Shown piece after piece: positions 864 to 36,926 of a stretch of 64,000 nt of DNA. The stretch is from Escherichia coli (GTDB lineage: Bacteria; Pseudomonadota; Gammaproteobacteria; Enterobacterales; Enterobacteriaceae). Each line of letters begins with the position of its first letter. Position 1 is the stretch's first letter. The notes beneath the pieces were generated by a model. That model had not been told where the DNA came from, did not search any database, and was given only the letters and a program-made list of their open reading frames with translations. The position numbers and the translations under genes are program-made. The stretch is taken from NCBI RefSeq assembly GCF_030013595.1, contig NZ_CP122768.1, one strand, 5' to 3'.

Positions 864-883
864 AAAAAGGCCGCAGAGCGGCC
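864..883. repeat. attL core of the P2-like prophage (direct repeat copy 1)
   Basis: Exact 20-bp match to 36907-36926; contains the hairpin GGCCGC-aga-GCGGCC. Confidence 0.6.
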
Positions 884-1008
884 ATAAACACAAGTAAAAA
901 TCAATAAGTTATATAATTATCAAAGACTTACAGACACACAAAAACACAGCCAACCACAACAAATAACAGGGATGTGGTCATTTTGTGGATCATATCGCCG
1001 CCATAAAT

Positions 1009-1446
1009 TTACTTAATAACAGTAACCACAGCCACAAGCACGGCCATCGCAGACAGGACAATACCTGTGAGTAACCAAGTCTGATTTGCAAATGATTTCT
1101 GAAGTTCAGTACGATGCTCAGCCATCTCAACTTTCAGAGACTGGCGTAAATCAGCCATCTCAGACTTCAGGGATTGGCGCGATTCTGCCATCTCAAGCCT
1201 CAACCCTTCGCGAATCTCCAGTACATCAGATTTGGTAGCAAAGGATTCGCTTCTTGTGGTGAGAGTAATCAGGTTGTTTTTGATTTCAGTCACATCACTT
1301 TCCAGGCAACTGACCCGCCGTTCAAGGTCGTCATTCATGCCATCACCTCCATCATTACCACTTCCTGTTACTTGGTTGTTGGATACATTATAGGCATTCT
1401 CTTTCTTTTTTCTGAACCGCGAAATATGTGCAACATTCTCTGCCAT
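1009..1446 (-). CDS. Hypothetical coiled-coil protein with C-terminal transmembrane anchor (cargo)
   Basis: ORF with repeated heptad-like segments (LRLEMAESRQSLKSEMADLRQSLKVEMAEHRTEL) and a hydrophobic C-terminus; start overlaps the stop of the upstream ORF (TGATG). Confidence 0.5.
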   Translation of the reverse strand: MAENVAHISRFRKKKENAYNVSNNQVTGSGNDGGDGMNDDLERRVSCLESDVTEIKNNLITLTTRSESFATKSDVLEIREGLRLEMAESRQSLKSEMADLRQSLKVEMAEHRTELQKSFANQTWLLTGIVLSAMAVLVAVVTVIK

Positions 1447-1808
1447 CACTTCTCATCACCCTGCTTGCCTACCCAGTTCATAAAGGCCCGGGCCGAGTAA
1501 CGATGAACAAACCCACATCTGTTACAGGTAAGTCGGAATTCATAGTTATGGATATTTTCCCGATCATGTCCCTCATATCCCGGATACCCAGTAAATGGAC
1601 CGATGTAATCAAGCATAACAAAAGTGCCTAAATCACACTCCTCAGCAGTTTTCGGCTCAGGCCCCACCTCAACAATATTCGTCAAATACATGTACATATC
1701 CGTATCGCCACACGACAAACATTTTTCATTCGTAGACGACTCATTGAGAAAACGCGCAAAATTATCGAGCGTTGCCATTCTTTTAAGTTCATCTAAATGA
1801 AACTTCAC
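1446..1808 (-). CDS. Hypothetical protein with two CxxC pairs (possible zinc ribbon), cargo
   Basis: GTG start preceded by AGGAGG located inside the last int codons; CLSCG and CNRCG motifs. Confidence 0.5.
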   Translation of the reverse strand: MKFHLDELKRMATLDNFARFLNESSTNEKCLSCGDTDMYMYLTNIVEVGPEPKTAEECDLGTFVMLDYIGPFTGYPGYEGHDRENIHNYEFRLTCNRCGFVHRYSARAFMNWVGKQGDEK

Positions 1809-1810
1809 TC

Positions 1811-2788
1811 TTAAGCACCTCCTAGTGGATTAAACCTCACCGCATCCTGCAGGTAATCCGGCGCAAGATGGGCATAAATCATCGTTGTCTGAATCTTTGC
1901 GTGCCCCAGAATTTTCTGGAGCGTCAGAATATTGCCGCCGTTCATCATGAAATGACTGGCGAAGGTATGGCGCAGCGCATGAACAGCCTGGCCGTCAGGA
2001 ACATCAGGTGCGACCGTTTTGATGACATCGCGAACCAATGGATAATCCAGCGTCGGAAACACCAGTTTCCCGCCCCGTATTTTGATCTTTTCAAACAGGC
2101 TTTCAGAAATAGGAACGGTACGGTTTTTGCTGTTCTTCGTTTTTGAAAAAGTGATTCGACAATGAAGAACACGGCGCTGCTCTAGTGCCGCTACCTCGCC
2201 CCATCGCGCCCCGGTCGACAGAAGGATTTCGACAGCCAGCCGTTCATCGGGATTTTCAGCCAGTGCATCCAGCAACTGAACACATTCAGACTTACTCAGA
2301 TATCCCATTTCGCGCTCGTTAACCTTCATTCCTTTAAGGCCTTGAACGGGGTTATCGTTAAGAAAATGGCCGGATGAGATGAGTGCGGTAAACATCGCGC
2401 TTAACGCCCCAATCTCTCGATTTATGGTGCTGGGCTGTATCCCCTGCTCTATCCTGGACACACGTAGCTCGGTGAGCATCGTTGTATTAAGTTTATGCAC
2501 GCACGGGTCATCCATTGCCTCACTCAAGCGCAGCAATTTAAGGCGCGTGTTATGCCCTGACTTCATTAGCTGGCCGTGGTATTTCCACCACAAGTCAATA
2601 AGCACTGACAGCGGGCGGCGATCAATGGAGTTTCCTTTCCACTCATTGTTATGCTGTTGCGCCAGCACCCACCGCTCATATAAAACTGCATCCGATTTCG
2701 TTTTAAATTTTTTGCGAATGCGTTTGCCTTTACGCCCCTCAGGACGCATGTCAAGAAGATACCCTCCCGGAATTGATTTTATGCTCAT
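1811..2788 (-). CDS. int: Tyrosine integrase (P2 Int-like)
   Basis: C-terminal HxLRHT...Y catalytic region (AVHALRHTFASH...MIYAHL); adjacent to C repressor as in P2. Start chosen at MSIKS (ORF is open up to 2938). Confidence 0.85.
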   Translation of the reverse strand: MSIKSIPGGYLLDMRPEGRKGKRIRKKFKTKSDAVLYERWVLAQQHNNEWKGNSIDRRPLSVLIDLWWKYHGQLMKSGHNTRLKLLRLSEAMDDPCVHKLNTTMLTELRVSRIEQGIQPSTINREIGALSAMFTALISSGHFLNDNPVQGLKGMKVNEREMGYLSKSECVQLLDALAENPDERLAVEILLSTGARWGEVAALEQRRVLHCRITFSKTKNSKNRTVPISESLFEKIKIRGGKLVFPTLDYPLVRDVIKTVAPDVPDGQAVHALRHTFASHFMMNGGNILTLQKILGHAKIQTTMIYAHLAPDYLQDAVRFNPLGGA

Positions 2789-2837
2789 TCGTGAAGCCCC
2801 AGCGTTACAAGACCACCATGCCCCCAGCGTTCCATGA

Positions 2838-3149
2838 TTAGCCGGGCTGTGTGCCAGTCTTGCGGGATTTTTGAGAAGACGATGTGTTTTCTGGCCCATC
2901 AGGGGAGAGAGAAGGACTGATCTGCCCAGCAGCCTCATTTGTTTCGTTACTCATCAACCACGTAGTGTATTTTTTAAATTCCGGGTGCATTGTGATTTTC
3001 AGTAAAACCTCCGTTCCCACACCTCGAATACCAGTCTCGTATTGCTTAACCGTACCAACCGCAATACCTATTGAATCCGCGAACTTTGCCTGACTAAGCC
3101 CCTCAGATTCTCGAATTGCTTTTAGCTTCTTTGATATCTCTATTGACAT
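2838..3149 (-). CDS. C: Immunity repressor (P2 C-like, HTH)
   Basis: About 103 aa from MSIEISKKLKAIRESEGLSQAKFADSIGIAVGTVKQYETG; helix-turn-helix; divergent from the early operon. Confidence 0.75.
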   Translation of the reverse strand: MSIEISKKLKAIRESEGLSQAKFADSIGIAVGTVKQYETGIRGVGTEVLLKITMHPEFKKYTTWLMSNETNEAAGQISPSLSPDGPENTSSSQKSRKTGTQPG

Positions 3150-3244
3150 GGTGTGCACCTGAATACTATATTGGTTATCAGTTGAGTACCACTTGACACT
3201 ACAAAGAGCCACAAATAGCACCAGATTGAATAGGTTATCACACC

Positions 3245-3523
3245 ATGGCAAAAGTCCTTAACACATACGAACAAGCGGATTTTGAGCGTTTGGCGGCGTT
3301 CTACCCATACCGTAATGAACATGGGCTACCGGTACTTGAAGAAAGCCTGGAGGATTATGCGAAACGCACAAATCAAAGCATTCTCGCTGTAAGAAGGCAG
3401 GCTGATAGATCGGTAATTCCCGTTACTCAAGAAGGAAGAAACACAAAACGCAAAGTAAATCTCTTCGCAATTTTCCTGAAAACCATCAGAAACGCAGAGA
3501 AATACGTGCAAATGACAAAATAA
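3245..3523 (+). CDS. First early-operon gene, putative Cox/Apl-like regulator
   Basis: 92-aa ORF divergent from the repressor, positionally equivalent to P2 cox; no clear sequence match recalled. Confidence 0.45.
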   Translation: MAKVLNTYEQADFERLAAFYPYRNEHGLPVLEESLEDYAKRTNQSILAVRRQADRSVIPVTQEGRNTKRKVNLFAIFLKTIRNAEKYVQMTK

Positions 3524-3537
3524 CGAGGTGTCATTTT

Positions 3538-3876
3538 ATGCTGAAGCAACGCCGTAATTTTTGTACCGGAACAGAACGCCACGCTAACCGTTTCACTACC
3601 AGTGCATCACGCAGCAACATCCGCTACAGCCTGAGTGATACACACGCAACGCCGGATGGCTACCCAGTAAAACAAATCGGCGAGCACGCCTGGCTGATTG
3701 AGAAAGCTGGAATCGTGATCCACAAATGCCCACGCAATCCGTTTACCGGAAACCGCATTTTTGCACTGAGCTGTGGCGACAATCAGTTCGGGCAGGATTT
3801 CACATTATACGAAGCACTTCGCACGGTTGATCGTCTGCTTCGCGGGCAAAGTTTTATTAAACAGGCTGATTTATAA
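3538..3876 (+). CDS. Hypothetical early protein
   Basis: ORF with GAGGTG ribosome-binding site. Confidence 0.5.
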   Translation: MLKQRRNFCTGTERHANRFTTSASRSNIRYSLSDTHATPDGYPVKQIGEHAWLIEKAGIVIHKCPRNPFTGNRIFALSCGDNQFGQDFTLYEALRTVDRLLRGQSFIKQADL

Positions 3877-3886
3877 CAGGTGCTTT

Positions 3887-4174
3887 ATGACCAAAGACCA
3901 TGCACAAGGTGTATTTATTCGTTTTATTGATTTTCGCGGTGAACTGTTATTACGTGCATCCGCTATTGACGGAGTGACTCCGGCGGGTAAAAACGGAGCC
4001 GACGAAGCCACTTACGTTTATCTGAACGGCACGCGACTGCTTGTGGAACTTCCGTACCAGACCGTACGAGAAATCATCAGCGAAGCTGAAAAGGCACGCC
4101 AGGTTAATGGCGATGAACCCTATATCGAAATTATTTGTATGGATTCAGAAGCTGAAATACAGAAAGCAGATTAA
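3887..4174 (+). CDS. Hypothetical early protein
   Basis: ORF from internal ATG directly after the previous stop. Confidence 0.5.
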   Translation: MTKDHAQGVFIRFIDFRGELLLRASAIDGVTPAGKNGADEATYVYLNGTRLLVELPYQTVREIISEAEKARQVNGDEPYIEIICMDSEAEIQKAD

Positions 4175-4182
4175 AGGGCGTT

Positions 4183-4428
4183 GTGATGGGCAAAGAATAT
4201 AAAACTCTCATTAACAAAGCACTTGAGCGTTTTTATTTTCGCTTAAGTGCATCAGGCGCTCATGCTGAACGTGCGGCCCGTGACTCATTGACCAGAGCAA
4301 TCCGAAGTCTGTATGACGTGGCTTTTTACGCTGATGATCTGGATGCACTTAACGAACTTTCCGAGCTGATCTGTGCCGCAGAATGCGGGGAACATATTGA
4401 ACCGTATAAGCTGGGAAATATCGCATGA
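4183..4428 (+). CDS. Hypothetical early protein
   Basis: 81-aa ORF in the early operon. Confidence 0.5.
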   Translation: MMGKEYKTLINKALERFYFRLSASGAHAERAARDSLTRAIRSLYDVAFYADDLDALNELSELICAAECGEHIEPYKLGNIA

Positions 4429-4538
4429 GTATATTTATTTCATGGCTTGTTCTGATTATTTCGGTGGCCTGCGCCATTGGGATTATGCGAATTATTAATT
4501 CAGTAAAAAAGATTGAACGCTTTTTCACTGAAGAATAA
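4425..4538 (+). CDS. Small hydrophobic peptide (37 aa), translationally coupled
   Basis: ATGA overlap with upstream stop; MSIFISWLVLIISVACAIGIMRIINSVKKIERFFTEE is a single predicted transmembrane helix. Confidence 0.3.
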   Translation: MSIFISWLVLIISVACAIGIMRIINSVKKIERFFTEE

Positions 4539-4624
4539 CCGCGCAAATAAGACCCCAGGTTAAATAAGAAAATGTGAAAACAATCCGCATTCGCGGAGGT
4601 ATTCGCACACGCCAAGGAGGCGTA

Positions 4625-4828
4625 ATGGCAATTAAGCATTTTCCTGTCGTTCGTTTCACCTCCAGAGGACGTGAATACGAAGTTGACGAACGCCTGATTA
4701 CCACAATCGACAAACACCGTTCAGAAAAGGATGCACATCACATCTATCTCACTGACGGCACTTACTTCTGCGCCACCAATGTGGTGCAGGTGAATCTTAT
4801 CAGACAGGTACAGGAGTCACGCAGATGA
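4625..4828 (+). CDS. Hypothetical early protein
   Basis: ORF with AAGGAGG ribosome-binding site. Confidence 0.5.
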   Translation: MAIKHFPVVRFTSRGREYEVDERLITTIDKHRSEKDAHHIYLTDGTYFCATNVVQVNLIRQVQESRR

Positions 4829-5070: not shown

Positions 5071-5211
5071 GCACCTCCAACTGCCGGAAACCACGTCGGG
5101 CTTCAGCAGCTCATCCGGCAGCAAAACAAACTCCATTAATTCCTGTTCCGGGCCTTTCCTGCACCTTGCGGCGGGAGGCCTTCGCACATCTGTAACAAGA
5201 GGATTGCCGCA

Positions 5212-5583: not shown

Positions 5584-8406
5584 ATGACGGCAAAGTACAT
5601 CAGGGACTGGCAACAACCGCGCCACGCAGTGGGGCGTGAAGGAACGGGGATCCCCGCTCCTGAATCCGCGCTTTCCTCCTGGCTGGATGCCTACCGGGCA
5701 GAGAACGAGCGCCGCCAGGAAATGGCTGATGCGGCGTTCTCCGCCACGCCGCTGGGCAACCTGATTAATAAAAGCCTGGACGCACAGGAAAAACAGGACA
5801 AAACCATCACACTGGCAGGAGACGCCAGAAAACAGGCACGCGGCGCGGTGGATGAAGCCATGGCCTCGCTGCGCCTGCTGCCGTCCTATCTGCGCGATCC
5901 GCTTATTCGCCACCTCTCCTTCCTGCGCAAAAAACAGGAAGCCGATCGTCAGAAAGGAAAAAACGCCAGGCAGGCAGAACGCTATGCGCGTGGGACCCTG
6001 CGCAAAATATTCGAACGTCTGGAGCGCACCGATCACCGCTGGCTGACACCGGGTTATCGCTCCCTTGCCGGACGCGAACGCCTGGACGATTTGCTTTACC
6101 TGCCGCAGCTCAACAAACACCAGATACAGACGCTGGCCACCATGACGGCGGCGATGTTCAGCAGCACCTTCGAAAAACTCTGCGATGGCTTTGGCGCGAC
6201 CGATGGCGAACTGACCATGGATGTAACGCTGAAGGCGTATCAGATGCTGGCCCGCATGGCGTTACACCTGCACATCATGCCTCCACATTATGACGCACTG
6301 ACAACAGACAAAGACCGGAGGAACGAACCGGACACGGAGCTGCTGCCGGGCGCAATCCTTCGCCTGACCTGTGCGGAATGGTGGAAACGCAAACTGTGGC
6401 TGTTACGTTGCGAGTGGCGGGAAGAACAACTCCGCGCCGCCTGTCTGGTTTCCAGAAAAACATCACCCTATCTGAGCCAGGACGCGTTAAGCGAGTTTCG
6501 CGCACACCGCGAGAAAACACGCGATTTCCTGAAAAGTTTCATGCTGGAAAATGAAGACGGGTTCACGATTGATCTCGAGACGGTGTATTACGCGGGAGTA
6601 AGTAACCCGGTTCACCGTAAGGCAGAAATGATGGCCACCATGAAGGGGCTGGAACTTCTGGCCGAAGCCCGTGGCGACAGAGCGGTGTTTCTGACTGTCA
6701 CCTGCCCGTCAAAATACCACGCAACAACGGAGAACGGTCATCCGAATCCCAAATGGAACGGGGCCACCATGCGCGACTCCAGCGATTACCTGGTTAACAC
6801 GTTTTTTGCGACGGTCCGCAAAAAACTGAACCGCGACGGTCTTCGCTGGTATGGCATCCGCACGGTGGAGCCTCACCATGACGGCACTGTGCACTGGCAT
6901 ATGATGGTCTTTGCACATCCGGACGAGATTGAAACCATCGTGTCCCACGTCTGCGATATTGCCATTCAGGAAGACCGCCACGAGCTGGGCGATGATATTA
7001 CTCCGCGTTTTAAAGCGGAGTACGTCGACGGCTCAAAAGGCACGCCAACCAGCTACATCGCCACCTACATCGGAAAGAACCTGGACAGCCGCGCCGTGGA
7101 TGGCATCGCCCCGAAAACGGGCAAGCCACGCGTTGACCACGAAACCGGAAAATCAATGGCCGAGAGCGTGGAGCGCGCCATCGGCTGGGCGCGCCTTCAC
7201 CGGGTCCGCCAGTTCCAGTTCTTTGGCATCCCCTCCCGTCAGGTGTGGCGTGAACTGCGCCGCCTTGCCAGCCAGATGGCACGCAACCCGGAAGGCCCGC
7301 AACGGCTGAAGGATGACGCAATGGATGCAGTGCTCGCTGCCGCTGATGCCGGGTGTTTTGCCTCCTACATTGAAAAACAGGGCGGCGTACTTGTTCCACG
7401 CCAGGACTACCTGATTCGCACCGCCTACGACCTCGCAGATGAGCTGAACGATTACGGCGAACAGAGCGTACAGATTTACGGGATCTGGTCACCACTCATC
7501 GGGGAGTCTTCCCGTGTGTGCACACATCCGGATAACTGGAAGCTGGTAAGACGTAAACCGGAAGCGGAAGACAGCGCCCGCGAAAATGGTTTTGACCTTC
7601 AGGGCGGCCCTGCCGCCCCTTGGACTCGTGGCAATAACTGTCCCCGTGTACAGGAAACGGACAACAACGGGACAGAACAGCCGGAAGAACGGCCAGCACC
7701 GTGGCCGCAGCTCCCTGACGGCGTTGAAGTGAACGAATGGATGCGCTCACTGAAACGGCACGAACGCCGGGCGCTGATGCGTTCGCTTCGTGACAAACAG
7801 GCAAAAAACAGCAGTGATGAAATGCAGAGCTGGACACAGAGCCGCAAACAGCAGCGGCCTTTGCCTGATAACCACGAATTACTCGCTAAAGAATGGCGGG
7901 AGTCTGCTGAATCTCTCGGCCTGCATATCGGTGAACAACAGATGCAGCACCTGTTACGGGGCGGCAGTCTGTACGTTGACGGCAGCATCATTGCACCGCA
8001 GGGATTTGAAATTGTACGCAAACCGGATACCCGCCCGGACAGCCGAATCACGCAGCTCTGGCAGCGCCTGAGCCGTAATCATGGCGTAAGCAGCACGGAG
8101 ATCCGCCATAACCCGGTCGCCAGCTATCTGGCACAGCTGGGGGCATCAGACCCTGAAGCCGCCGCACGCCTGGCATCCACACTTCAGCAGGACCAGAACA
8201 CCATGAAAACACCCGTTACCGTGCTTTCTGACATGCTGCGCGCCATCCGCGACGCAGAGCACGCACAGAGAATCAGTGAAACCACTGAACGCGCCAGCCG
8301 CAAAGCAGACCTGCTGCGGGGTGGCCTGACCAGTGGAAACAAAAAACAGACAGAAACGGGACTCACGAATCCCGCAAATGAGCAAAAAACGCGCAGCGAT
8401 ATATGA
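5584..8406 (+). CDS. A: Replication initiation endonuclease (P2 gpA family, rolling-circle)
   Basis: 940-aa ORF with the HUH-type region (GTVHWHMMVFAHPDE) and conserved P2 position between early genes and the Q/P packaging genes. Confidence 0.85.
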   Translation: MTAKYIRDWQQPRHAVGREGTGIPAPESALSSWLDAYRAENERRQEMADAAFSATPLGNLINKSLDAQEKQDKTITLAGDARKQARGAVDEAMASLRLLPSYLRDPLIRHLSFLRKKQEADRQKGKNARQAERYARGTLRKIFERLERTDHRWLTPGYRSLAGRERLDDLLYLPQLNKHQIQTLATMTAAMFSSTFEKLCDGFGATDGELTMDVTLKAYQMLARMALHLHIMPPHYDALTTDKDRRNEPDTELLPGAILRLTCAEWWKRKLWLLRCEWREEQLRAACLVSRKTSPYLSQDALSEFRAHREKTRDFLKSFMLENEDGFTIDLETVYYAGVSNPVHRKAEMMATMKGLELLAEARGDRAVFLTVTCPSKYHATTENGHPNPKWNGATMRDSSDYLVNTFFATVRKKLNRDGLRWYGIRTVEPHHDGTVHWHMMVFAHPDEIETIVSHVCDIAIQEDRHELGDDITPRFKAEYVDGSKGTPTSYIATYIGKNLDSRAVDGIAPKTGKPRVDHETGKSMAESVERAIGWARLHRVRQFQFFGIPSRQVWRELRRLASQMARNPEGPQRLKDDAMDAVLAAADAGCFASYIEKQGGVLVPRQDYLIRTAYDLADELNDYGEQSVQIYGIWSPLIGESSRVCTHPDNWKLVRRKPEAEDSARENGFDLQGGPAAPWTRGNNCPRVQETDNNGTEQPEERPAPWPQLPDGVEVNEWMRSLKRHERRALMRSLRDKQAKNSSDEMQSWTQSRKQQRPLPDNHELLAKEWRESAESLGLHIGEQQMQHLLRGGSLYVDGSIIAPQGFEIVRKPDTRPDSRITQLWQRLSRNHGVSSTEIRHNPVASYLAQLGASDPEAAARLASTLQQDQNTMKTPVTVLSDMLRAIRDAEHAQRISETTERASRKADLLRGGLTSGNKKQTETGLTNPANEQKTRSDI

Positions 8407-8482: not shown

Positions 8483-9442
8483 ATGAAAATTTGTATCGAC
8501 GACGGCTCCACCAACATCAAGCTGGCATGGACTGAGAACGGCGAACGCCGCAACGCCATCAGCCCGAACAGCTTCAAGTCGGAATGGTCTGCGCCGTTCG
8601 GCGGCACGCAGCCCGCGAACTACATGCTTGATGGCGTGCGCTATGGTTTTGATCCGGTCAGCGATCGCTTTGTCCAGACGACCGACACGCAATACCAGTA
8701 CAGCGATGTAAATGTCATTGCCATTCATCACGCGCTGGTCAAATCAGGCATCACGCCACAGGAGGTGGATGTGGTTGTCACCCTGCCACTGAGCGAGTAT
8801 TTCGACACAAACGCACAGCCGGACATGGCCAACATCAACCGCAAAAAAGCGAACGTTATGCGCCCGGTGGAGTACCAGAACGGCGAAGCATTCACTATCC
8901 GTAACGTGCGGGTTATGCCTGAATCCATTCCGGCTGGCTTTAAAGCACTGGCTGACATGAGTCCGTTTGAATCCCTGCTGATTGTGGATTTAGGTGGAAC
9001 CACGCTGGATGTGGCAAAGGTTCAGGGACAACTGGCAGGTATCAGCCAGGTGTTTTGCGATCCACACGTAGGCGTTTCCCTGATGGCCGATGCAGTACTG
9101 TCGGTGATGGCCACTAACGGTATGCGTACCAGTCACCACATCGCCAATACCATTATCGAACATCGCCATGATGAAGCCTGGCTGCGCCAGCACATCCACA
9201 ATGACGCGCATTACGCCAGCCTGATGGCGGTTATTCGTGAAAAGGAAGAAACACTGAAACAACGCGTGATCCGCGCGCTGGCGGGTTTTTCGGGTTACGG
9301 GCGGGTGATGGTTGTCGGTGGCGGGGCGGAGATTGTGGCACCCGCTATCCGCGAAGCCTGCGGAGTTAATGCGACTTTCATCGCGGACGGGGTGCCACAG
9401 TTTGCTCTGGTTAATGGGCTGTACGCAATGGACAAGGAGTAA
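8483..9442 (+). CDS. parM: ParM/StbA-like actin-family partition ATPase
   Basis: Residue-level similarity along the whole length to plasmid R1 ParM as I remember it (IDDGSTNIKL, YSDVNV...HHAL, VMPESIPAG, LI.DLGGTTLD, GGGAE, LVNG). Confidence 0.85.
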   Translation: MKICIDDGSTNIKLAWTENGERRNAISPNSFKSEWSAPFGGTQPANYMLDGVRYGFDPVSDRFVQTTDTQYQYSDVNVIAIHHALVKSGITPQEVDVVVTLPLSEYFDTNAQPDMANINRKKANVMRPVEYQNGEAFTIRNVRVMPESIPAGFKALADMSPFESLLIVDLGGTTLDVAKVQGQLAGISQVFCDPHVGVSLMADAVLSVMATNGMRTSHHIANTIIEHRHDEAWLRQHIHNDAHYASLMAVIREKEETLKQRVIRALAGFSGYGRVMVVGGGAEIVAPAIREACGVNATFIADGVPQFALVNGLYAMDKE

Positions 9443-9446
9443 ACCA

Positions 9447-9758
9447 ATGACGACACCAACCAGACGGATAAGTTTCTATCTGAAGCCCGCCGCCGTCAAG
9501 AACGAAGGCGAAGCATGCGCCTGGCTGGACAGCCTTACACCAGAAGCCCGCAAAAGCGGCCAACGTGTGGCTTTTCTGGCCGGGCTGGCACTTCTGAAAA
9601 TGAATCCGGCAGAGGCTTACCGACTGGCTGCATGGGCTGACGATGAGGCGTTATCAGTGACACAAACCAGGACAGAACGCCCCGCGTCACAGCCAGTACC
9701 AACCACACAGATAACCAGTCGGATGGCCGGAAATATCAGGGCGTTATTTCCCGAATAA
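9447..9758 (+). CDS. parR: ParR/StbB-like centromere-binding protein
   Basis: Starts 4 bp after parM; resembles R1 ParR from memory (FYLKP, AALTAGLAL-type helix, RALFPE C-terminus). Confidence 0.6.
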   Translation: MTTPTRRISFYLKPAAVKNEGEACAWLDSLTPEARKSGQRVAFLAGLALLKMNPAEAYRLAAWADDEALSVTQTRTERPASQPVPTTQITSRMAGNIRALFPE

Positions 9759-19839: not shown

Positions 19840-20417
19840 GCGCAGAACTCATGCGACTGCTGAGCAATATCATCCGCACCGGGATCATCTCTGAAGTTGA
19901 TGAGAAGTCCTGGCGCGTGCGCGTTCGCAGCGGCGAACTGGAAACAGGCTGGTTGCGCTGGAACACCACGCGCGCGGGAGCCTTCAATGTATGGCTGCCG
20001 CCATCACCAGGCGAACAGGTGGTAATTGCCTGCATTGGCGGCAACCCGGAAACCGCCATGATAATTGGCAGCCTGTGGAGTGATGCCAGTCCGGCCCCCG
20101 GCAAAAGCCTGAAAGAAATCGTGGTCAGCGCGCCGGATGGCGCGGCGTTCCGCTACGACGCAGACGCTGGCGCACTGAGCGCCAGCGGCATGAAAACAGC
20201 CACCCTGCAGGCATCCGTCAGCGTGACACTGGATACGCCCGTCGTGGAATGCACAAACCTTCTGAGAACAGCGACGCTTGACGTCACAAAAGGGGGAAAG
20301 ATGAGCGGCAATATCACGCACAGCGGCGGCGATTTCACCTCAAACGGCATCACAGTGCATACGCATAAGCACGGTGGCGTTAAAGGTGGCAGCGATTCGA
20401 CAGGAGGCCCGCAGTGA
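19836..20417 (+). CDS. V: Baseplate spike/assembly protein (P2 gpV)
   Basis: 193 aa with the conserved GG/HTH..HGG C-terminus of gpV-type spikes. Confidence 0.85.
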   Translation: MSAELMRLLSNIIRTGIISEVDEKSWRVRVRSGELETGWLRWNTTRAGAFNVWLPPSPGEQVVIACIGGNPETAMIIGSLWSDASPAPGKSLKEIVVSAPDGAAFRYDADAGALSASGMKTATLQASVSVTLDTPVVECTNLLRTATLDVTKGGKMSGNITHSGGDFTSNGITVHTHKHGGVKGGSDSTGGPQ

Positions 20418-22189: not shown

Positions 22190-24781
22190 ATGAGTACCAC
22201 AACACGAAAATTTAAAACCATTATCACTGATACTGGTGCCAAAAAATTAGCTCAGGCAGCCGCGCCAGATGGTAATCCTGTCCGCCTGACTCACATGGCC
22301 GTGGGCGACGGTGGCGGCACGTTGCCCACACCAGACAGTAAGCAGACCCGTCTGGTGCATGAGGTGTGGCGACATACTGTTAATCGCGTCATCCTGGACG
22401 CAACACATCAGAACCGCATTATTGCGGAGCTGGTTATTCCTCCTGAAACGGGCGGATTCTGGATCCGGGAAATTGGTGTATTTGATGAGCACGGCGATTT
22501 GATCGCGGTGGGCAATACTGCGGAAAGTTACAAGCCAGCCGTTGCCGAAGGATCCGGACGTGTACAAACATTTCGCACCATTCTGACCGTATCCAGCACT
22601 GCCACCGTGGCGCTTACCGTGGATAACACCATGGTTATGGCCACAGTGGATTACGTGAATGACAAACTGAAAGAACATGAACAGTCACGACGTCACCCGG
22701 ACGCCTCGCTGACCGCAAAAGGCTTTGTTCAACTCAGTAGCGCCACCAACAGCACGTCTGAAACACTGGCCGCAACGCCGAAAGCGGTAAAGGCCGCGTA
22801 TGACCTTGCTAACGGGAAATATACCGCACAGGACGCCACCATAGCGCGAAAAGGCCTTGTCCAGCTCAGTAGTGCCACCAACAGCACGTCTGAAACGCTC
22901 GCCGCAACGCCGAAAGCGGTAAAGGCAGCATATGACCTTGCTAACGGGAAATACACTGCACAGGACGCCACCACAACGCGAAAAGGCCTTGTTCAGCTCA
23001 GTAGCGCCACCAACAGTGATTCTGAAACGCTTGCGGCAACGCCAAAGGCGGTAAAGGCAGCATATGACCTTGCTAACGGGAAATACACTGCACAGGACGC
23101 CACCACAGCGCGAAAAGGTCTTGTCCAGCTCAGTAGCGCCACCAACAGCACGTCTGAAGCATTGGCCGCAACACCGAAAGCGGTAAAGGCCGCGTATGAC
23201 CTTGCTAACGGGAAATACACTGCACAGGACGCCACCACAGCGCGAAAAGGTCTTGTCCAGCTCAGTAGCGTCACCAACAGCGATTCTGAAACGCTTGCGG
23301 CAACGCCAAAGGCGGTAAAGGCCGCGTATAACCTTGCTAACGGGAAATACACTGCACAGGATGCCACTACAGCGCGAAAAGGTCTTGTCCAGCTCAGTAG
23401 CGTCACCAACAGTGATTCTGAAACGCTGGCCGCAACATCAAAAGCGGTGAAGTCTGCCTATGACAATGCTGAAAAACGCCTTCAGAAAGATCAGAACGGT
23501 GCGGATATTCCGGGAAAGGATACCTTCACGAAAAATATCGGTGCCTGTCGTGCTTATAGCGGCGCTTTGAGCACTGAAGCCGGAAACTGGACAACCGCTC
23601 AGTTTATTGAATGGCTGGATTCCCGTGGTGCATTTAATCATCCGTACTGGATGTGCAAAGGCTCATGGTCATATGCAAATAACAAAATCATTACGGATAC
23701 CGGATGTGGTGATATCCACCTGGCTGGTTGTGTCGTCGAGGTCATGGGAACTAAATCTGCAATCACTATCCGAGTAACCACGCCGACAACATCAAGTGGT
23801 GGCGGTACAACCAGCGCACAATTCACTTACATTAATCATGGGGGCGGCTACTTCCCCGGCTGGCGTCGTGACTGGAATCGTCAGGGCGACTCAATGACCG
23901 GAACGATTAATCAGGATGGCGGAAGCCAGAATGCCTATATGTCTACGGCCTTATGTTCAGGCACCAGAGGCGGCAAAAAATATCTCAGAAAGTTTCGTGG
24001 TGGAGAAGGAGATACTATCTGGCATGAAACAGTACAGGGCGGGGTAATTCGCTGGGCGACAGGAAACTATGACGCTCAGGAAGAATTATCACTCAGCTCC
24101 GCTTATGGTCTCCGTTCAAGAGGTGAGATTACATCACTCAGTGCTAATGGTCTGCGCATTGCTTATGGCAATTATGGATTCTTTATCAGGAATGATGGCG
24201 GCAGCACATATTTAATGCTGACGGCCTCTGGCGATAAATTTGGGACATGGAACGGCTTAAGACCGCTGACTATCAATAACGCCAATGGCGGAGTGTCAAT
24301 GGGGCATGGCCTGAGTGTTACAGGTGATATTGTCTCAAGTACCAAAGTACGTGCCGGTAGCGGGAAAAAGTTCACGGTCAGCAGCAGCAATACATCCACG
24401 AAGGAAGCCGCATTCAATTTGTGGGGAAACGCAAGTCGTCCGGTGGTGGCTGAATTAGGTGATGATGCAGGCTGGCATTTTTACAGTCAGAGAAATACAG
24501 ATAACAGCATCACTTTTGCTGTTAACGGGCAGGTATCACCATCTAACTATGGCAACTTTGATTCACGCTATGTCCGGGATATTAGACTTGGTGGCGCGTC
24601 ATCCTATAAACCAGCAAATAACGGGACAACATGGACGCATCAGGCTCCATCTGGTTGCGCATATACCGGGATTATCGTTCAGGATACAGGCTCAAACTCT
24701 GCCGATAATATTGGTGGTGTTTATTACAGACCAATTCAAAAAAATATTAATGGTACATGGTATAACGTATCGAGTGTTTGA
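22190..24781 (+). CDS. H: Tail fiber protein (P2 gpH-like) with expanded internal repeats
   Basis: Conserved gpH N-terminus, then about 5.5 tandem 44-aa repeats and a distal receptor-binding region. Confidence 0.85.
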   Translation: MSTTTRKFKTIITDTGAKKLAQAAAPDGNPVRLTHMAVGDGGGTLPTPDSKQTRLVHEVWRHTVNRVILDATHQNRIIAELVIPPETGGFWIREIGVFDEHGDLIAVGNTAESYKPAVAEGSGRVQTFRTILTVSSTATVALTVDNTMVMATVDYVNDKLKEHEQSRRHPDASLTAKGFVQLSSATNSTSETLAATPKAVKAAYDLANGKYTAQDATIARKGLVQLSSATNSTSETLAATPKAVKAAYDLANGKYTAQDATTTRKGLVQLSSATNSDSETLAATPKAVKAAYDLANGKYTAQDATTARKGLVQLSSATNSTSEALAATPKAVKAAYDLANGKYTAQDATTARKGLVQLSSVTNSDSETLAATPKAVKAAYNLANGKYTAQDATTARKGLVQLSSVTNSDSETLAATSKAVKSAYDNAEKRLQKDQNGADIPGKDTFTKNIGACRAYSGALSTEAGNWTTAQFIEWLDSRGAFNHPYWMCKGSWSYANNKIITDTGCGDIHLAGCVVEVMGTKSAITIRVTTPTTSSGGGTTSAQFTYINHGGGYFPGWRRDWNRQGDSMTGTINQDGGSQNAYMSTALCSGTRGGKKYLRKFRGGEGDTIWHETVQGGVIRWATGNYDAQEELSLSSAYGLRSRGEITSLSANGLRIAYGNYGFFIRNDGGSTYLMLTASGDKFGTWNGLRPLTINNANGGVSMGHGLSVTGDIVSSTKVRAGSGKKFTVSSSNTSTKEAAFNLWGNASRPVVAELGDDAGWHFYSQRNTDNSITFAVNGQVSPSNYGNFDSRYVRDIRLGGASSYKPANNGTTWTHQAPSGCAYTGIIVQDTGSNSADNIGGVYYRPIQKNINGTWYNVSSV
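22715..23460 (+). repeat. Tandem in-frame 132-bp repeats (about 5.5 copies) inside the tail fiber gene
   Basis: Unit encodes RKGLVQLSSATNSxSETLAATPKAVKAAYDLANGKYTAQDATTA; copies near-identical at DNA level. Confidence 0.85.
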
Positions 24782-32396: not shown

Positions 32397-33032
32397 TTAG
32401 CGAGCTAATATATTCAAAGAATTTAACAATTGAGTGTCGAGTGTTTCAGTTGCAGGAATCGGTAATCCATTCGCAATGCGGTAATTTTTCACAGACAGCC
32501 TTGTGGATGGCCCCATTATGCCGTCAATATTTCCGTTATAAAATCCCCTGTCCAGCAATGCGAACTGAACTCGCATAATCAATCGCTTACGTTTCTCTGC
32601 ATCAGAAGCAAGCCCATTACTCGTACGGTTAACCTCTGAAGTTCCAACAGAACTCGTGTTAGTGGTTCTATTATTATCGTTAGAACGAAGTGCACGCACC
32701 GAGGAAGAGGACGATGAGGAACTTGCACCTGAACTTGAAGAACCAGATGAACTTGGTGAGCTGTATGTTTTTGGATAATAGGGGGTACTTCCACCATAGT
32801 ATCCACCACCTGATGAGGATCTATGAGAGCTATGGCTCCTATGAGAACTATGGCTTCGATGCCCTGCGATATAAAATGGGACTTCCGTGTTAAGTGGAGC
32901 TATCACTAAATCATGCTCATTAAGAGTCATACCAGGTAAATCACTCGCTCCTGTAGATGAATCGCTTGCCCATACAGAATTGTTGAGAGCCAAAAATCCC
33001 GGAAGTAGAGCAGCAAAATTAAACTTTTTCAT
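32397..33032 (-). CDS. hxsA: His-Xaa-Ser repeat protein HxsA: secreted precursor with Gly/Ser/Tyr-rich linker and C-terminal peptidoglycan-binding domain
   Basis: Signal peptide MKKFNFAALLPGFLALNNSVWA; HRSHSSHRSHSSHRS repeats; C-terminus LLDRGFYNGNIDGIMGPSTRLSVKNYRIANGLP resembles PG_binding_1; ATGA overlap with hxsC. Confidence 0.8.
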   Translation of the reverse strand: MKKFNFAALLPGFLALNNSVWASDSSTGASDLPGMTLNEHDLVIAPLNTEVPFYIAGHRSHSSHRSHSSHRSSSGGGYYGGSTPYYPKTYSSPSSSGSSSSGASSSSSSSSVRALRSNDNNRTTNTSSVGTSEVNRTSNGLASDAEKRKRLIMRVQFALLDRGFYNGNIDGIMGPSTRLSVKNYRIANGLPIPATETLDTQLLNSLNILAR

Positions 33033-34141
33033 AAAATTGGTCTCGGTGATTGATGAAAACGGCCTTTTGAGGAACTGAAATAGCCAGCACAGGAAGGCTT
33101 CTGAGTACATTCATCACATTCTTTTGGATAGTAATTTTTCCAATCAGAGATCGACTGAACAGCAAGCTCCCTAGCCCTTTCAGGAAGATAACACAAAGGA
33201 TAATTAAAAATTGTCAGAGGTATGCCTGACCTGTATGCAGCGTCTATGGCAGAGATTATTTTCTCACTATAACTACTGTGATCAATGAAGATGGTGGACC
33301 AGTTTTTTCGTGCCCAACCGATAGGCTCCAACCCCATAAGGGAAATCTGATTGATGTTGGAGAACACACGGCCAGCGAATTCTACGATATCATCCAATTC
33401 GGTATAGTTAGCCAGTGTAGGAATAACTCTAAGTTCGATATTAATCCCCAAGTTTCCTGCATTGATTAACCCTTTAACCGTTTCATTAAATGCGCCATCA
33501 CTCCCTACCAGATGATCATGCACAAGTGGTCTTGATGAGTAGAGCGGGATACCAAAGGTGATTTTGATCTTTTTGCTTCGCTTTGCCATTTCCTGTGTAA
33601 AGTTGGTATCAGCAAATTTGCGTCCGTTTGTTAAAACATGTAAAGCAGTATCTGGTGAATTCTCGATGATAAAATCAATGAAGTGAAGGAAGTCATCCCC
33701 ATATAGCAAAGGTTCACCACCGCTGACCCCAACAACTCCGTTCAAGCCAAATGAAGCTATAGCAAGAGCTGATTGGGTAAGTAGCCAGTCATCATTTATT
33801 TTCTTTGGTGGCTGCGAACAAAACAGACACAAGTTATTGCAGCGTTCCGTAACTAAGACAGTATTATGATTGGCTTTGCGTGACAGAATAACGCGTATCA
33901 TATTGCCATTGTTGATTATCCCAATATCTCCATCTTCAATTGACTCAAATAATTCAGTGCTAATAACAGAGAAATCAAAGCATGGTGGAATGGCATCATT
34001 ATTGCCTTCAGCAACTACTAGCAAATTGGGCAAAAAGAATAAAGGGTTCACTGGTTTTTGTTTGCATAACCGATAGAACCCCGTGGGCACGTTCTCTGTA
34101 GAAGCAAAATGAAAGATATCGTTCCTGATAACCTCAGACAT
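33029..34141 (-). CDS. hxsC: Radical SAM maturase (HxsC-type assignment; B/C assignment tentative)
   Basis: CNNLCLFC (Cx3Cx2C) radical-SAM cluster motif; C-terminal CDEC...C cluster; overlaps both neighbours. Confidence 0.8.
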   Translation of the reverse strand: MSEVIRNDIFHFASTENVPTGFYRLCKQKPVNPLFFLPNLLVVAEGNNDAIPPCFDFSVISTELFESIEDGDIGIINNGNMIRVILSRKANHNTVLVTERCNNLCLFCSQPPKKINDDWLLTQSALAIASFGLNGVVGVSGGEPLLYGDDFLHFIDFIIENSPDTALHVLTNGRKFADTNFTQEMAKRSKKIKITFGIPLYSSRPLVHDHLVGSDGAFNETVKGLINAGNLGINIELRVIPTLANYTELDDIVEFAGRVFSNINQISLMGLEPIGWARKNWSTIFIDHSSYSEKIISAIDAAYRSGIPLTIFNYPLCYLPERARELAVQSISDWKNYYPKECDECTQKPSCAGYFSSSKGRFHQSPRPIL

Positions 34142-35522
34142 ATGCCCATCCTTTTAGCATCTCAGCCTTCGAACCACCCTCTGAGATGCAGTTCATCAGA
34201 TACCTGAACATCCCCTTGTGATATTGACAAAACGTTGAACGACTCCTATCACCGACAGGCTCACCCTGTACACTTATGTTCTGGCATGGATCTGAACCAC
34301 AAAATGGTTGATATGCACATGTATCACAACCTGGCAGAGCAAAATTGAACGATGAACTCAATACTGCGTTATAGTAAGGACTATCAGAAAATGATAGCGT
34401 CTTAACTTCACCCGCACTGAACTCCGTTTCAGGATTCACCTTCTGCAACATACGGCTCTCATCGCTACCATATACTCGACCGTCATAATTGAAAAGAATA
34501 CTGTTAAGCACGACTCCACTTGGAGACTTTAAATCCGCATAACCACTAAAACCGGGATTGAAGATCCTTTTCAGATGAATGGAGGCCGAATGTTCCACAA
34601 CCCTTATCCCTTCATTATTAATCTTAAGGATTTCATCTATCAACGAGGCATAGAAGCTGAAGTATTCGTCCATAGAAAAGGTGAAAGAAGCTTTTTGTGC
34701 AAACCCATAGGGACTAACAGGTCGGATAAACATGTCCTTGAGACCAAGAGACAAGTGAGCCTGAACAATCGATTCAGGACGTCTGATAAGCTCTTTAGTA
34801 ACTGTAGTAACCGTTGCAACGCGGCCAGCACCTAAAGAGTGTTTGATAGCCTCTACCCCTGACACTGTTCTACTGTACGCAAGCCCACGACCAAGAATTC
34901 GATTACTGTTGTGAACAACTTCCTCACCATCAAGCGACACAGAGAACGTTATGTTCCGGTCTCTCGACCATTCAATCATATCCTCATTCAAGACAGACAG
35001 ACTTGATGCCACCACCATCTCAAAATTGGTTCTTCCCAGCGTTTCAGCACATTGATCATAGATGCTCTGAATTAAATCAAACCGCAAGAGAGGCTCCCCA
35101 CCCTGTATCTCTATTTTGTAAGGTGGCGTTGATAGTTTTTTAATAGCCGAAATAATATCGGGGATGAGCTCAGGATTTAGGTCGTAACCTGAGGCATTAA
35201 CAGAAGCTCTACTAACCTGGCAATACTTGCATGTATGGTCACAACGTAATGTGGGTACAATCATGAAAATTGGCCTGACAGCCAGTTCATTCATCAATCG
35301 TTTTGCAAAAGCAGAACTTAAAGCATAGGGAGTTATAGCAGATGAGCTTTCACTGGTTATGAAAAGCTTACTTTCTAGCACGTTTGATTGCTCCGAACTA
35401 ATTCGCTCATCAGAAAGATCAATAAGGTCTTGCTCACCAATGAAATGATGAAAACCTGCAAGGTTGCTTATAAACACCTGTCCATTAGGCAATCTGTCAA
35501 AATTAAATGGCATCAATTCCAT
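34134..35522 (-). CDS. hxsB: Radical SAM/SPASM maturase (HxsB-type assignment; B/C assignment tentative)
   Basis: CDHTCKYC (Cx3Cx2C) motif plus C-terminal Cys-rich SPASM-like region (CDTCAYQPFCGSDPC...C). Confidence 0.8.
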   Translation of the reverse strand: MELMPFNFDRLPNGQVFISNLAGFHHFIGEQDLIDLSDERISSEQSNVLESKLFITSESSSAITPYALSSAFAKRLMNELAVRPIFMIVPTLRCDHTCKYCQVSRASVNASGYDLNPELIPDIISAIKKLSTPPYKIEIQGGEPLLRFDLIQSIYDQCAETLGRTNFEMVVASSLSVLNEDMIEWSRDRNITFSVSLDGEEVVHNSNRILGRGLAYSRTVSGVEAIKHSLGAGRVATVTTVTKELIRRPESIVQAHLSLGLKDMFIRPVSPYGFAQKASFTFSMDEYFSFYASLIDEILKINNEGIRVVEHSASIHLKRIFNPGFSGYADLKSPSGVVLNSILFNYDGRVYGSDESRMLQKVNPETEFSAGEVKTLSFSDSPYYNAVLSSSFNFALPGCDTCAYQPFCGSDPCQNISVQGEPVGDRSRSTFCQYHKGMFRYLMNCISEGGSKAEMLKGWAYV

Positions 35523-35836
35523 TATGAAAGCCTCTCATCAACACTGCGAAGCACTTTATGGACAATAGAGTCTCTCAACGCCCCTGTTTTATGCTGTAGC
35601 TTTTCTCGCAAAGAGTAATCATTAAGCAGCCTATCGAATTCATAAAGGAATTTGGGATTATCGTTTTCAAAAGAGATTATCCAGTGGGAAACGTCTTCAT
35701 GGAGTTTCCATCGAGTAAGCGGAGTCATCCAATATAGACTATTGCGTATAACCCATTCAGAATATAGTTCTTTCTCAAACACTCTTTCGCTCATTGCAAT
35801 TATCTTCCAATACAAATATTCATGATCAGCAACCAC
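35522..35836 (-). CDS. hxsD: HxsD, small LLNDYxLRE-motif protein of the His-Xaa-Ser system
   Basis: Contains FDRLLNDYSLREKL; GTG start at 35836 (alternative ATG at 35794); stop overlaps hxsB start by 1 nt. Confidence 0.7.
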   Translation of the reverse strand: MVADHEYLYWKIIAMSERVFEKELYSEWVIRNSLYWMTPLTRWKLHEDVSHWIISFENDNPKFLYEFDRLLNDYSLREKLQHKTGALRDSIVHKVLRSVDERLS

Positions 35837-35871
35837 TTTAAAGCGGATTTTTCCTATGGCAACAATAATAT

Positions 35872-35891
35872 AACATATCCATAGATATGTT
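35872..35891. promoter_or_regulatory. Perfect 8-bp inverted repeat (AACATATC-n4-GATATGTT) upstream of the hxs operon; candidate operator
   Basis: Located about 35-55 bp upstream of the hxsD start in the hxs/ogr intergenic region. Confidence 0.35.
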
Positions 35892-36046
35892 ACAGATGCC
35901 TTGTTTCCCGTTGACTAATACATCACAACGTTAGTAATGGCTATCACAATTGTGAACTTCCACTTTTCACACAAGACAAGCTGTTAATTGGAATCTGTAT
36001 CAGTACAACTTAGAATATCGGAAGCACCACAGTAAGGGAGGTCGCT

Positions 36047-36307
36047 ATGTTCCGTTGTCCGCTTTGTGGCGCATCCGCCCGAATCCGCACCAGTCGTCCG
36101 GAAAATGATTCAAACACCGTGCGGCAAAAGTATTACCAATGTAACAACCTAGAATGCGGCGTATGCTTCTCAACACTGGAAGCTTTCCATAAATTCACAT
36201 CAAAACACGCCTCCGGCGCTCACTCTTCAGAAGGTATCCCGTGGCATGAACTGCCAGCTTCACACAAAGGAAACAATCAGATGAGTTTGCCCTTACCTCA
36301 AAATTAA
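36047..36307 (+). CDS. ogr: Late transcription activator Ogr (C4 zinc finger)
   Basis: MFRCPLCGASARIRTSR...YYQCNNLEC parallels P2 Ogr (MFHCPLCQHAAHARTSR...YHQCQNVNC). Confidence 0.9.
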   Translation: MFRCPLCGASARIRTSRPENDSNTVRQKYYQCNNLECGVCFSTLEAFHKFTSKHASGAHSSEGIPWHELPASHKGNNQMSLPLPQN

Positions 36308-36367
36308 CAGGCAGAATTGCCGGAGTAACAAAAAAGAGATAGATTACGCGCGGGTGCCTTTCGGCTG

Positions 36368-36631
36368 ATGGTCGGAGGGAATACCCGAAGGCCAGATGTG
36401 GAAAGGCCCCGGAAAACATTTCTGTTTAACCGAGGCCCTAACCGCATTACCTTGACAAGTGAAAGGTTAGCGCCTCTCCGGAAAAGGAGCAAGTGCTATG
36501 TCGCAAAAATCGCTTACGGCCATCATGTTCTGCGTGACGGCAATCCTCATCATCTGGATGTTGCACGGTTCGCTGTGCGAAATACGGATGAGATTCTGGG
36601 GAGCGGAGTTTGCGGCGTTCTTACAGTGTAA
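36368..36631 (+). CDS. Mok-like overlapping reading frame (translation-coupling ORF for the hok-like toxin)
   Basis: 87-aa ORF in another frame spanning the hok-like gene, as in hok/mok loci; may not yield a stable protein. Confidence 0.35.
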   Translation: MVGGNTRRPDVERPRKTFLFNRGPNRITLTSERLAPLRKRSKCYVAKIAYGHHVLRDGNPHHLDVARFAVRNTDEILGSGVCGVLTV

Positions 36632-36638
36632 GCAGTAA
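36498..36638 (+). CDS. hok: Hok/Gef-family type I toxin (46 aa)
   Basis: AAAAGGAG ribosome-binding site; MSQKSLTAIMFCVTAILIIWMLHGSLCEIRMRFWGAEFAAFLQCKQ has the Hok pattern (TM helix then SLCEIR...AAF). Confidence 0.7.
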   Translation: MSQKSLTAIMFCVTAILIIWMLHGSLCEIRMRFWGAEFAAFLQCKQ

Positions 36639-36725
36639 GGAAACCGCGACGGGGGAGCAATCCCCCGTCAATCGGTTGCCAGGGTAAGGTCGATAAGGCA
36701 CCCTATCTCACAGACATGAACAACA

Positions 36726-36760
36726 AACCCGCAACGTAAAAACTGCGGGTTTTCTTTTTG
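36726..36760 (+). terminator. Rho-independent terminator downstream of the hok-like gene
   Basis: Hairpin ACCCGCA...TGCGGGT followed by TTTTCTTTTT. Confidence 0.6.
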
Positions 36761-36906
36761 GTGTCCTTACTGACTTGAAACGGTGATCAGACTATAAGAC
36801 AAAGCCCACAATGTAGCGGGCTTACTCCCCTCTCCCTCCACTGAATGTGGACACATGGTGGAACGAAGATATATAAAACATTATAAATCAATCGGTTACT
36901 GAAAGA

Positions 36907-36926
36907 AAAAAGGCCGCAGAGCGGCC
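36907..36926. repeat. attR core of the P2-like prophage (direct repeat copy 2); also the terminator hairpin of the downstream lambdoid gene
   Basis: Exact 20-bp match to 864-883; on the minus strand it forms hairpin plus T-run just after the stop of ORF 36949-37164. Confidence 0.6.

Follow-up and report, generated by a model that had tools for sequence, protein, structure and literature searches.

The 64,000-nucleotide (nt) stretch of Escherichia coli contig NZ_CP122768.1 (assembly GCF_030013595.1) analysed here, referred to as the window and supplying all coordinates below, contains a P88-like peduovirus prophage (the guest) nested inside a lambda-like prophage (the lambdoid, or host prophage). 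The guest very probably integrated by means of its own tyrosine integrase at a secondary site within the lambdoid prophage, and the nested pair is a real but rare case of a prophage-in-prophage arrangement already described. An earlier note on this DNA had proposed a P2-like genome inside a lambdoid prophage, and this is borne out by lambdoid genes on both sides and intact P2-family genes between the two copies of a perfect 20-bp direct repeat. The overall arrangement comprises the following elements.

1–270, minus strand: 5′ end of a nu1-type small terminase gene of the lambdoid prophage (phrog_57), which continues beyond the left edge of the window
300–510, minus strand: lambda-type cos region, 92% identity, with the 12-nt cohesive end of cosN at 448–459
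470–863, no strand assigned: stretch from cos to the attachment core, with no coding sequence annotated in L001
864–883, plus strand: attL core on the nu1/cos side, AAAAAGGCCGCAGAGCGGCC, exact repeat
884–36906, plus strand: P88-like prophage (Peduoviridae, Xuanwuvirus-like), genes intact, 36,043 bp including one core copy
36907–36926, plus strand: attR core on the lambdoid lysis side, exact repeat, and by terminator prediction the hairpin of the open reading frame (ORF) at 36949–37164
36949–37164, minus strand: lambdoid ORF of 71 amino acids (aa), phrog_4298, whose predicted terminator is the attachment core
37291–58884, no strand assigned: rest of the host lambdoid prophage, 99.9% identical to L006, with proteins about 100% identical
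59295–64000, no strand assigned: chromosomal flank with yccA, tusE, yccX, rlmI and further genes, the lambdoid prophage lying at the serT–yccA site

The repeat that bounds the guest stands as the earlier note described it, since AAAAAGGCCGCAGAGCGGCC occurs exactly twice in the window, at 864–883 and 36907–36926, with no other copies even at three mismatches (chance expectation 0), and forms the attachment core at which the element begins and ends. This core is predicted to act as a bidirectional intrinsic terminator and lies 22 nt downstream of the stop codon of the 71-aa ORF, which upholds the earlier claim that the repeat doubles as the terminator hairpin of that gene. At attR, the hairpin and its T-run are kept after insertion, regenerating the predicted terminator of the ORF. 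The presence of a lambda-type cos and nu1 on the minus strand at the left end is likewise confirmed, through a phrog_57 match at 1–270 (small terminase subunit, E = 2e-34; ‘DNA-packaging protein’ in annotated relatives) and through the identity of 300–510 to the cos region that carries the annotation ‘cos site’ in lambda, HK629 and DE3. Within this region, GGGCGGCGACCT, which we take to be the 12-nt lambda cohesive-end sequence, occurs once on the minus strand (0.01 expected by chance). The insertion point lies 405 bp from cosN, and cos itself is intact.

An unoccupied form of the target, with a single core copy and matching flanks, is found in the pig E. coli strain HCP5S3_I2 (NZ_CM149870), whose lambdoid half and chromosomal flank match the window at 99.9% identity across 24,974 bp. 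In this genome, window segments 1–883 and 36907–37800 map adjacently and overlap by exactly the 20-bp core, and the empty site reconstructed from the window differs from the natural one at 1 of 620 positions. The earlier note had asked whether relatives lacking the insert share these junctions, and had named two findings that would speak against nesting, namely flanks always continuous with P2-like DNA and a repeat belonging to a common repetitive extragenic palindromic (REP)-like element; the comparison with HCP5S3_I2 answers the question positively, and neither adverse finding is made. In a survey of 5,426 complete E. coli genomes, with the empty site defined as a 61-nt sequence at 100% identity, 43 genomes (HCP5S3_I2 included) carry the empty lambdoid site, each in a single copy, and a loose search for the core (E up to 10) returns a median of 3 and a maximum of 6 places per genome, which is not the distribution of a dispersed repeat. 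The empty site also occurs in 23 contigs of IMG/VR, which represent no fewer than three or four distinct lambdoid backbones. The 470–863 segment is common to several lambdoid backbones, and its last 77 bp are conserved in all of these contigs, even where the packaging modules of the backbones are not alike. Hairpins are present in the segment, one of them CAGCAGCCCCTT...AAGGGCTGCTG at about 821–849.

The guest type normally occupies the terminator of ihfA, in the btuC–ihfA interval, with a core that extends to 25 bp. In other genomes the guest-type left end abuts btuC and the right end abuts ihfA, the attL-proximal gene lies next to btuC in 10 of 10 sampled contexts, and the occupied btuC attL junction is present in 304 of the 5,426 complete genomes. 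E. coli SE11 provides a published example, with a 35.8-kb P2-like prophage between btuC and ihfA flanked by a 25-nt duplication (PMC2608844). A scan of IMG/VR for the chromosomal attR junction gives 0 matches, probably because the boundaries of uncultivated viral genomes (UViGs) end at the repeat. The three sites, reconstructed from their junctions, compare as follows.

attP (reconstructed): ...ctgaaaga[core]ataaacac...
chromosomal attB, the ihfA terminator: ...gtgaaaaga[core]tttttag...
lambdoid site: ...aacatg[core]tttatgg...

The attP core is identical to the chromosomal attB over 25 bp and to the lambdoid site over 20 bp, while the lambdoid site and the chromosomal attB have only 23 bp in common, their 100-bp flanks scoring within the shuffle distribution. 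On this sequence comparison, the lambdoid site is classed as a secondary attB within a prophage, because its identity to attP and to attB is limited to 20 bp and 23 bp, respectively, and flanking homology is absent. A chromosomal origin of the lambdoid site is unsupported, as homology to the ihfA–btuC flanks is absent, and its interpretation as the remnant of an old P2-like insertion is rejected, as the flanks are unlike the attP arms outside the core.

The remaining components of a P2-type recombination system are positioned around the cores.

973–980, plus strand: P′-arm P2-type arm-binding repeat TGTGGTCA, matching tgTGGaCa
984–991, plus strand: second, weaker P′-arm repeat TGTGGATC, motif match
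1814–2788, minus strand: P2-like tyrosine integrase, 325 aa, 99.1% identical to an annotated ‘phage integrase’
36846–36853, plus strand: P-arm P2-type arm-binding repeat TGTGGACA, motif match

The integrase gene is full length and adjoins attL, and the 325-aa integrase called at the equivalent position in relatives carries the Pfam domains Int_N and Phage_integrase. In the reconstructed attP, TGTGGACA lies at −61 and TGTGGTCA at +109 (0.44 such repeats expected in 820 bp), both judged against the published P2-type arm-binding consensus tgTGGaCa (PMC3448106).

Nesting at this site is seen more than once. IMG genome 2737471845, an isolate represented by IMG/VR contigs, carries both nested junctions, attL in contig L018 and attR in contig L042. 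Its lambdoid prophage has another terminase module (phrog_141, phrog_15), and its P2-like prophage has another cargo gene beside attL (phrog_14142) and another phage-arm haplotype; the left flank of this lambdoid recurs with an empty site in L020 and L040 at 100% identity. Because the pair differs from that of the window in terminase module, cargo and arm haplotype, these sequences argue for at least two independent integrations into the lambdoid site. A third genome, IMG 2778261251, contains a nested attR junction (L043) with 4 mismatches in 14,180 nt to the window (99.97% identity). Neither nested junction is found in GTDB species representatives or JGI metagenomes.

The primary site is occupied in close relatives of the window. 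HCP5S3_I2, whose lambdoid site is empty, carries a 37.6-kb P88-like prophage at btuC–ihfA, with a C repressor identical to that of the nested phage (homoimmune) and an integrase matching at 316 of 324 positions; 86% of the nested phage aligns to this prophage at 96–98% identity, with different cargo. In genome 2778261251, an occupied btuC attL (L049) differs from the nested phage at 1 of 4,207 positions in its first 4.2 kb, the sole difference from the window being core position 13, which is A in L049 and G in the window. Among 58 attL junctions compared, the window's phage-arm haplotype is seen at no primary site other than that of this genome. The most economical reading for the lineage is double lysogeny, or one phage type duplicated at chromosomal and in-prophage sites; the short contigs of genome 2778261251 leave its four junctions unconnected. 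Collectively, these comparisons support the earlier proposal of integration into a terminator hairpin of a resident lambdoid prophage and refine it: the target is a secondary attB, the event recurs, and the primary site is occupied in the lineage.

Core position 13 (window positions 876 and 36919) lies in the loop of the attachment core and is polymorphic, either A or G. The base is A in 5 of the 58 attL junctions, on five different phage-arm haplotypes, among them the primary-site attL of HCP5S3_I2 (L045) and that of genome 2778261251 (L049), and it is G in both nested copies and in all lambdoid sites. The A may tentatively be regarded as a host-derived allele, because both strains of the host lineage carry it despite the differing left ends of their primary-site prophages; strand exchange would then fall to the right of position 13, within AGCGGCC, a placement that is only suggestive with so few cases.

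No occupied lambdoid site is present among the complete E. coli genomes, that is, in 0 of the 43 site carriers. At the occupancy of the primary site (5.6%), about 2.4 of the 43 would be expected to be occupied, so that the observed count is weakly lower than expected (P about 0.08), and the rarity of nesting therefore largely reflects the rarity of the lambdoid site itself.

The favoured mechanism begins with a P88-like phage whose attP core has the intrinsic terminator downstream of ihfA as its usual partner. The terminator hairpin in the interval between the lysis cassette and cos of the lambdoid prophage offers this phage 20 bp identical to its attP core, and conservative site-specific recombination at the hairpin would leave the guest nested there, with a copy of the 20-bp repeat on either side. 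The recipient cell may already have carried a prophage at the primary site when the incoming phage entered the lambdoid copy.

Such an insertion would have consequences for the lambdoid prophage. Excised together with its insert, it would measure about 81.5 kb from cos to cos (about 45.4 + 36.0 kb). Lambda packages roughly 75–105% of 48.5 kb, and its head holds about 51 kb. Because about 81.5 kb is far above this capacity, the nested lambdoid would be unpackageable and would make no viable particles unless the guest first excised precisely, an event that would restore the lambdoid site. The view of the earlier note that the lambdoid prophage is probably trapped is thus well founded as regards size, but conditional. 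Additionally, Q-dependent late transcription could reach the head and tail genes only by passing through 36 kb of guest DNA. Lambdoid late transcription runs along the minus strand of the window from the lysis genes toward nu1 and enters the guest at attR; by gene orientation, it would read guest hxs, FI–U, P, Q, C and int in the sense direction, and both the Cox-position gene and the main late operons in antisense. A more far-reaching and improbable reading is that the terminator-shaped core of the lambdoid is no coincidence and is maintained as a landing pad, used by P88-like phages to enter a competitor that still functions and disable it. If this reading were true, a guest lodged between lysis genes and cos would make its host unpackageable and place it under guest control, a cross-family form of prophage ‘locking’ that would amount to inter-phage antagonism or hitchhiking, unlike the effector-locus cases in which the hosts were already dead.

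The nested structure could in principle have been created by assembly, with a P2-like genome located only at btuC–ihfA misjoined to the lambdoid through the shared 20–23 bp. A near-identical P2-like left end does sit at the primary site in genomes of the window's lineage, and draft contigs L018, L043 and L049 break within P2-like sequence, as expected of repeated DNA that is hard to assemble. This explanation is nevertheless hardly credible, since nested junctions bordered by long unique sequence on either side recur in two other genomes, in three independent contigs (4.5 kb of lambdoid and 8.1 kb of P2-like DNA in L018, and about 14 kb of lambdoid DNA plus a P2-like arm in each of L042 and L043), the repeat of 20–23 bp is below the usual assembly k-mers, and the two junctions in the window are exact and show the duplicated target that integration should leave. 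Very improbable, too, is a route without a free phage circle, whether by RecA- or microhomology-driven exchange of attachment cores or by Int-mediated rearrangement of attL and attR. The primary-site P2-like prophage of the lineage could serve as the recombination partner, and the short contigs of genome 2778261251 do not settle how its four junctions connect; such a route, however, requires two precise exchanges within one 20-bp stretch, which is a very poor RecA substrate, the yccA–rlmI flank is colinear between the window and the empty-site strain, and the nested structure arose again with a different phage and lambdoid pair, as a site-specific reaction predicts.

Integration by the guest's own integrase thus remains preferred. 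The insertion may be harmless if, on induction, the guest excises first or simultaneously, the lambdoid site regains its form together with its terminator, and both phages are made, leaving the lambdoid untrapped. Precise excision is possible in principle, given that the attachment cores, int and the Cox-position gene are all intact and that natural empty sites and the reconstructed one are all but identical, and helper-embedded phage-inducible chromosomal islands (HE-PICIs) show that a nested element can excise from an induced lambdoid (PMC10111431). Against this, the guest repressor is a short P2 C-type helix-turn-helix protein, and no LexA box was found. P2-type prophages with C/Cox switches are not known to be SOS-inducible. 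Moreover, lambdoid late transcription, which would read C and int in the sense direction and the Cox-position gene in antisense, would provide no obvious route to Cox expression, and a harmless insertion is on balance unlikely, though it has to be taken seriously. Integrase-driven insertion with trapping of the lambdoid has, in turn, several points against it. The role of Int as catalyst is something we infer from sequence. The predicted attP junction of an excised or free phage is absent from 50,697 phage records and from IMG/VR, an absence of data rather than a contradiction, and attP is accordingly a reconstruction. The left part of the host lies outside the window, and its completeness is assumed from the near-isogenic genome. 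Primary-site occupancy in the window genome is deduced from two relatives whose prophages differ at the attL-proximal cargo. The search for LexA boxes returned none above chance, and the C-type repressor of the guest is paired with a RacR-type repressor in the lambdoid. Finally, the description of the lambdoid as trapped would fail if the guest excised efficiently upon induction.

The guest is 97.5% identical to Escherichia phage P88 across 82% of window positions 864–25000 and 96–99% identical to many E. coli prophages. The earlier description of the P2-like genome as complete holds, as all genes transferred from annotated relatives are full length, without stop codons and at 94–100% identity. 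A full P2-type set of virion, lysis, replication and late-control genes is present in Peduoviridae order, with int, C, A, Q, P, O, N, M, L, the lysis and baseplate genes, H, FI–U, D and ogr all intact. Its main features, beyond the integrase, are listed here.

1012–1808, minus strand: two cargo ORFs of 145 aa and 120 aa between attL and int (phrog_9415, phrog_4293, function unknown)
2841–3149, minus strand: C-type repressor of the immunity switch, 103 aa (phrog_147, transcriptional regulator)
3245–3520, plus strand: Cox-position gene, 92 aa, divergent from C (phrog_11533, function unknown)
5584–8403, plus strand: gpA-like replication endonuclease, 940 aa, match to annotated relatives
10984–32232: structural and lysis genes, comprising portal Q, terminase P, O, N, M, L, X, holin, endolysin, R, S, V, W, J, I, H, G, U, T, E, FII, FI and D (L003, L004, L005)
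32400–35794, minus strand: hxsD-hxsB-hxsC-hxsA cargo operon (His-Xaa-Ser radical-SAM system), 99.5–100% identical to O26:H11 strain 11368
36047–36304, plus strand: ogr late activator, match to annotated relatives
36498–36635, plus strand: hok/gef family toxin gene, match to annotated relatives

The hxsDBCA operon is placed between D and ogr, and at the equivalent position the primary-site prophage of HCP5S3_I2 holds an ATP-binding protein, hypothetical proteins and ISVsa5. Because of this different cargo, the D–ogr interval is a variable cargo hotspot. PADLOC applied to the cargo genes reports only weak radical-SAM (pVip) similarity for hxsB and hxsC. The hok/gef toxin gene lies about 270 bp from the guest attR; an Rfam scan of the window returns no family at gathering score, and no Sok. 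Directly after the replication gene, parM and parR-like partition genes occupy 8483–9755 on the plus strand and are conserved in relatives; this pair hints at a plasmid-like phase or a stabilisation function. In the tail-fibre gene H, a 132-bp (44-codon) unit is repeated 5.7 times in tandem across positions 22717–23464 (plus strand), at 89% identity, and the C-terminal part of H and the downstream assembly gene are unlike those of close relatives. ARAGORN calls a 90-nt tRNA-Leu(CAG) at 20123–20212 (minus strand) inside the baseplate V gene (19851–20414), which is probably a false positive. An inversion of the tail genes FI–U relative to P2 was considered and rejected, as the opposite-strand layout is annotated in all relatives and is normal for this phage group. 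The P2 cos sequence used for comparison is not found in the guest, and a P2-like cos was not located there.

The lambdoid genes visible in the window are intact by comparison with relatives, and in HCP5S3_I2 the corresponding prophage extends from serT to yccA over about 45.4 kb; its lambda-like set of head, tail and packaging genes is complete, and none is flagged as a pseudogene. To the right of attR lie small ORFs, a GH108 endolysin and holins (38270–39471), a DNA methyltransferase, Q (43674–44336), RusA, replication genes, YdaS/YdaT/RacR immunity, dicB, an exonuclease, a xis-like gene and int (57868–58884), after which come the chromosomal genes yccA, tusE, yccX and rlmI. The Rac-type immunity region (RacR, YdaS, YdaT) spans 51314–54820 together with ydfB, ydfC and dicB, and DicF has no Rfam match in the window. 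A ParD/ParE toxin–antitoxin pair is encoded at 46164–46723. A palindromic LexA-box-like sequence, TACTGTAAAAATATCCAGTT, at 42154–42173 has 2 mismatches to the consensus used and overlaps the start of the DNA methyltransferase gene (41099–42181, minus strand).

The position of the primary site also bears on gene content attributed to this phage group. A 2026 survey of P2-like viruses counts the BtuC permease as an auxiliary metabolic gene (PMC13100340), and btuC is the chromosomal gene directly outside attL in all loci examined (L002, L004, L005, L007–L016). Because btuC lies chromosomally just outside attL in these loci, the auxiliary-metabolic-gene call may be a prophage-boundary artefact. 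Prophage-calling software is prone to merging or mis-splitting nested composites of the kind described here.

The closest known counterparts are the prophage-in-prophage structures of Shiga toxin-producing and enteropathogenic E. coli, termed attB-in-PP_1/2/3 by Nakamura, Ogura, Gotoh and Hayashi (2021, PLoS Pathog; PMC8112680). As in those cases, a temperate phage enters a copy of its chromosomal attB carried by a resident E. coli lambdoid prophage through site-specific recombination, and the core is duplicated at the junctions, by 21 bp there and 20 bp here. An attB is present both inside the host prophage (the lambdoid core) and in the chromosome (the ihfA terminator), and the phage type is able to occupy both sites, leading to duplication, as for the Shiga toxin (Stx) phages of that study. 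The guest, however, is a P2-family peduovirus here and a lambdoid phage, often Stx-carrying, there. The attB copies of those hosts retain 79–184 bp of flanking homology (yecE, ykgJ-ecpE, ompW) and lie in effector loci at the prophage end, whereas the site in the window has no flanking homology past 23 bp and is a terminator between lysis genes and cos, within the late transcription unit. A derivation of the in-prophage attB from chromosomal DNA, a feature of the Nakamura cases, is accordingly not seen, the two sites sharing 23 bp only. The hosts also differ. All are defective in the Nakamura cases, a regularity rather than part of the definition; here the genes of the visible half are intact and the gene set of the near-isogenic host is complete.

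A second point of comparison is provided by HE-PICIs (Mageeney et al. 2023, NAR Genom Bioinform; PMC10111431). In both systems the element is nested in a lambdoid late region, helper or host late functions await exit of the guest, and host replication and late transcription run into it. HE-PICIs, however, are satellites of roughly 11 kb with integrases of one clade, inserted inside late coding genes, co-oriented with them and dependent on the helper for packaging, whereas the guest in the window is an autonomous 36-kb phage with virion genes, located in an intergenic terminator and showing no sign of dependence. It therefore does not belong among small satellites that lack virion genes and reside in a helper late gene.

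With the btuC–ihfA prophages, such as PP_SE11-4 of E. coli SE11 (PMC2608844), the guest has its int/att module and 25-bp core in common; those prophages are chromosomal, whereas the copy in the window lies in a lambdoid prophage with core identity of 20 bp only. Phage P88 (KP063541) differs in its int/immunity module, its match beginning at window position 3574. Near-isogenic strains with the lambdoid site empty, with it occupied and with the primary site occupied together form a natural system, usable for defining the core identity needed by a P2-type integrase and for learning whether insertion beside cos is enough to silence a prophage. Phage P2 itself uses secondary loc sites in E. coli, its type of integrase accepting partial core matches, and these classical sites are chromosomal, whereas the site in the window is carried by another prophage. 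The nested pair widens the prophage-in-prophage arrangement on three counts: the guest is a P2-family phage where the earlier guests in lambdoids were lambdoid themselves, the host prophage is apparently intact where the earlier hosts were defective, and the site is a bare terminator look-alike of 20–23 bp where the earlier attB copies were derived from the chromosome.

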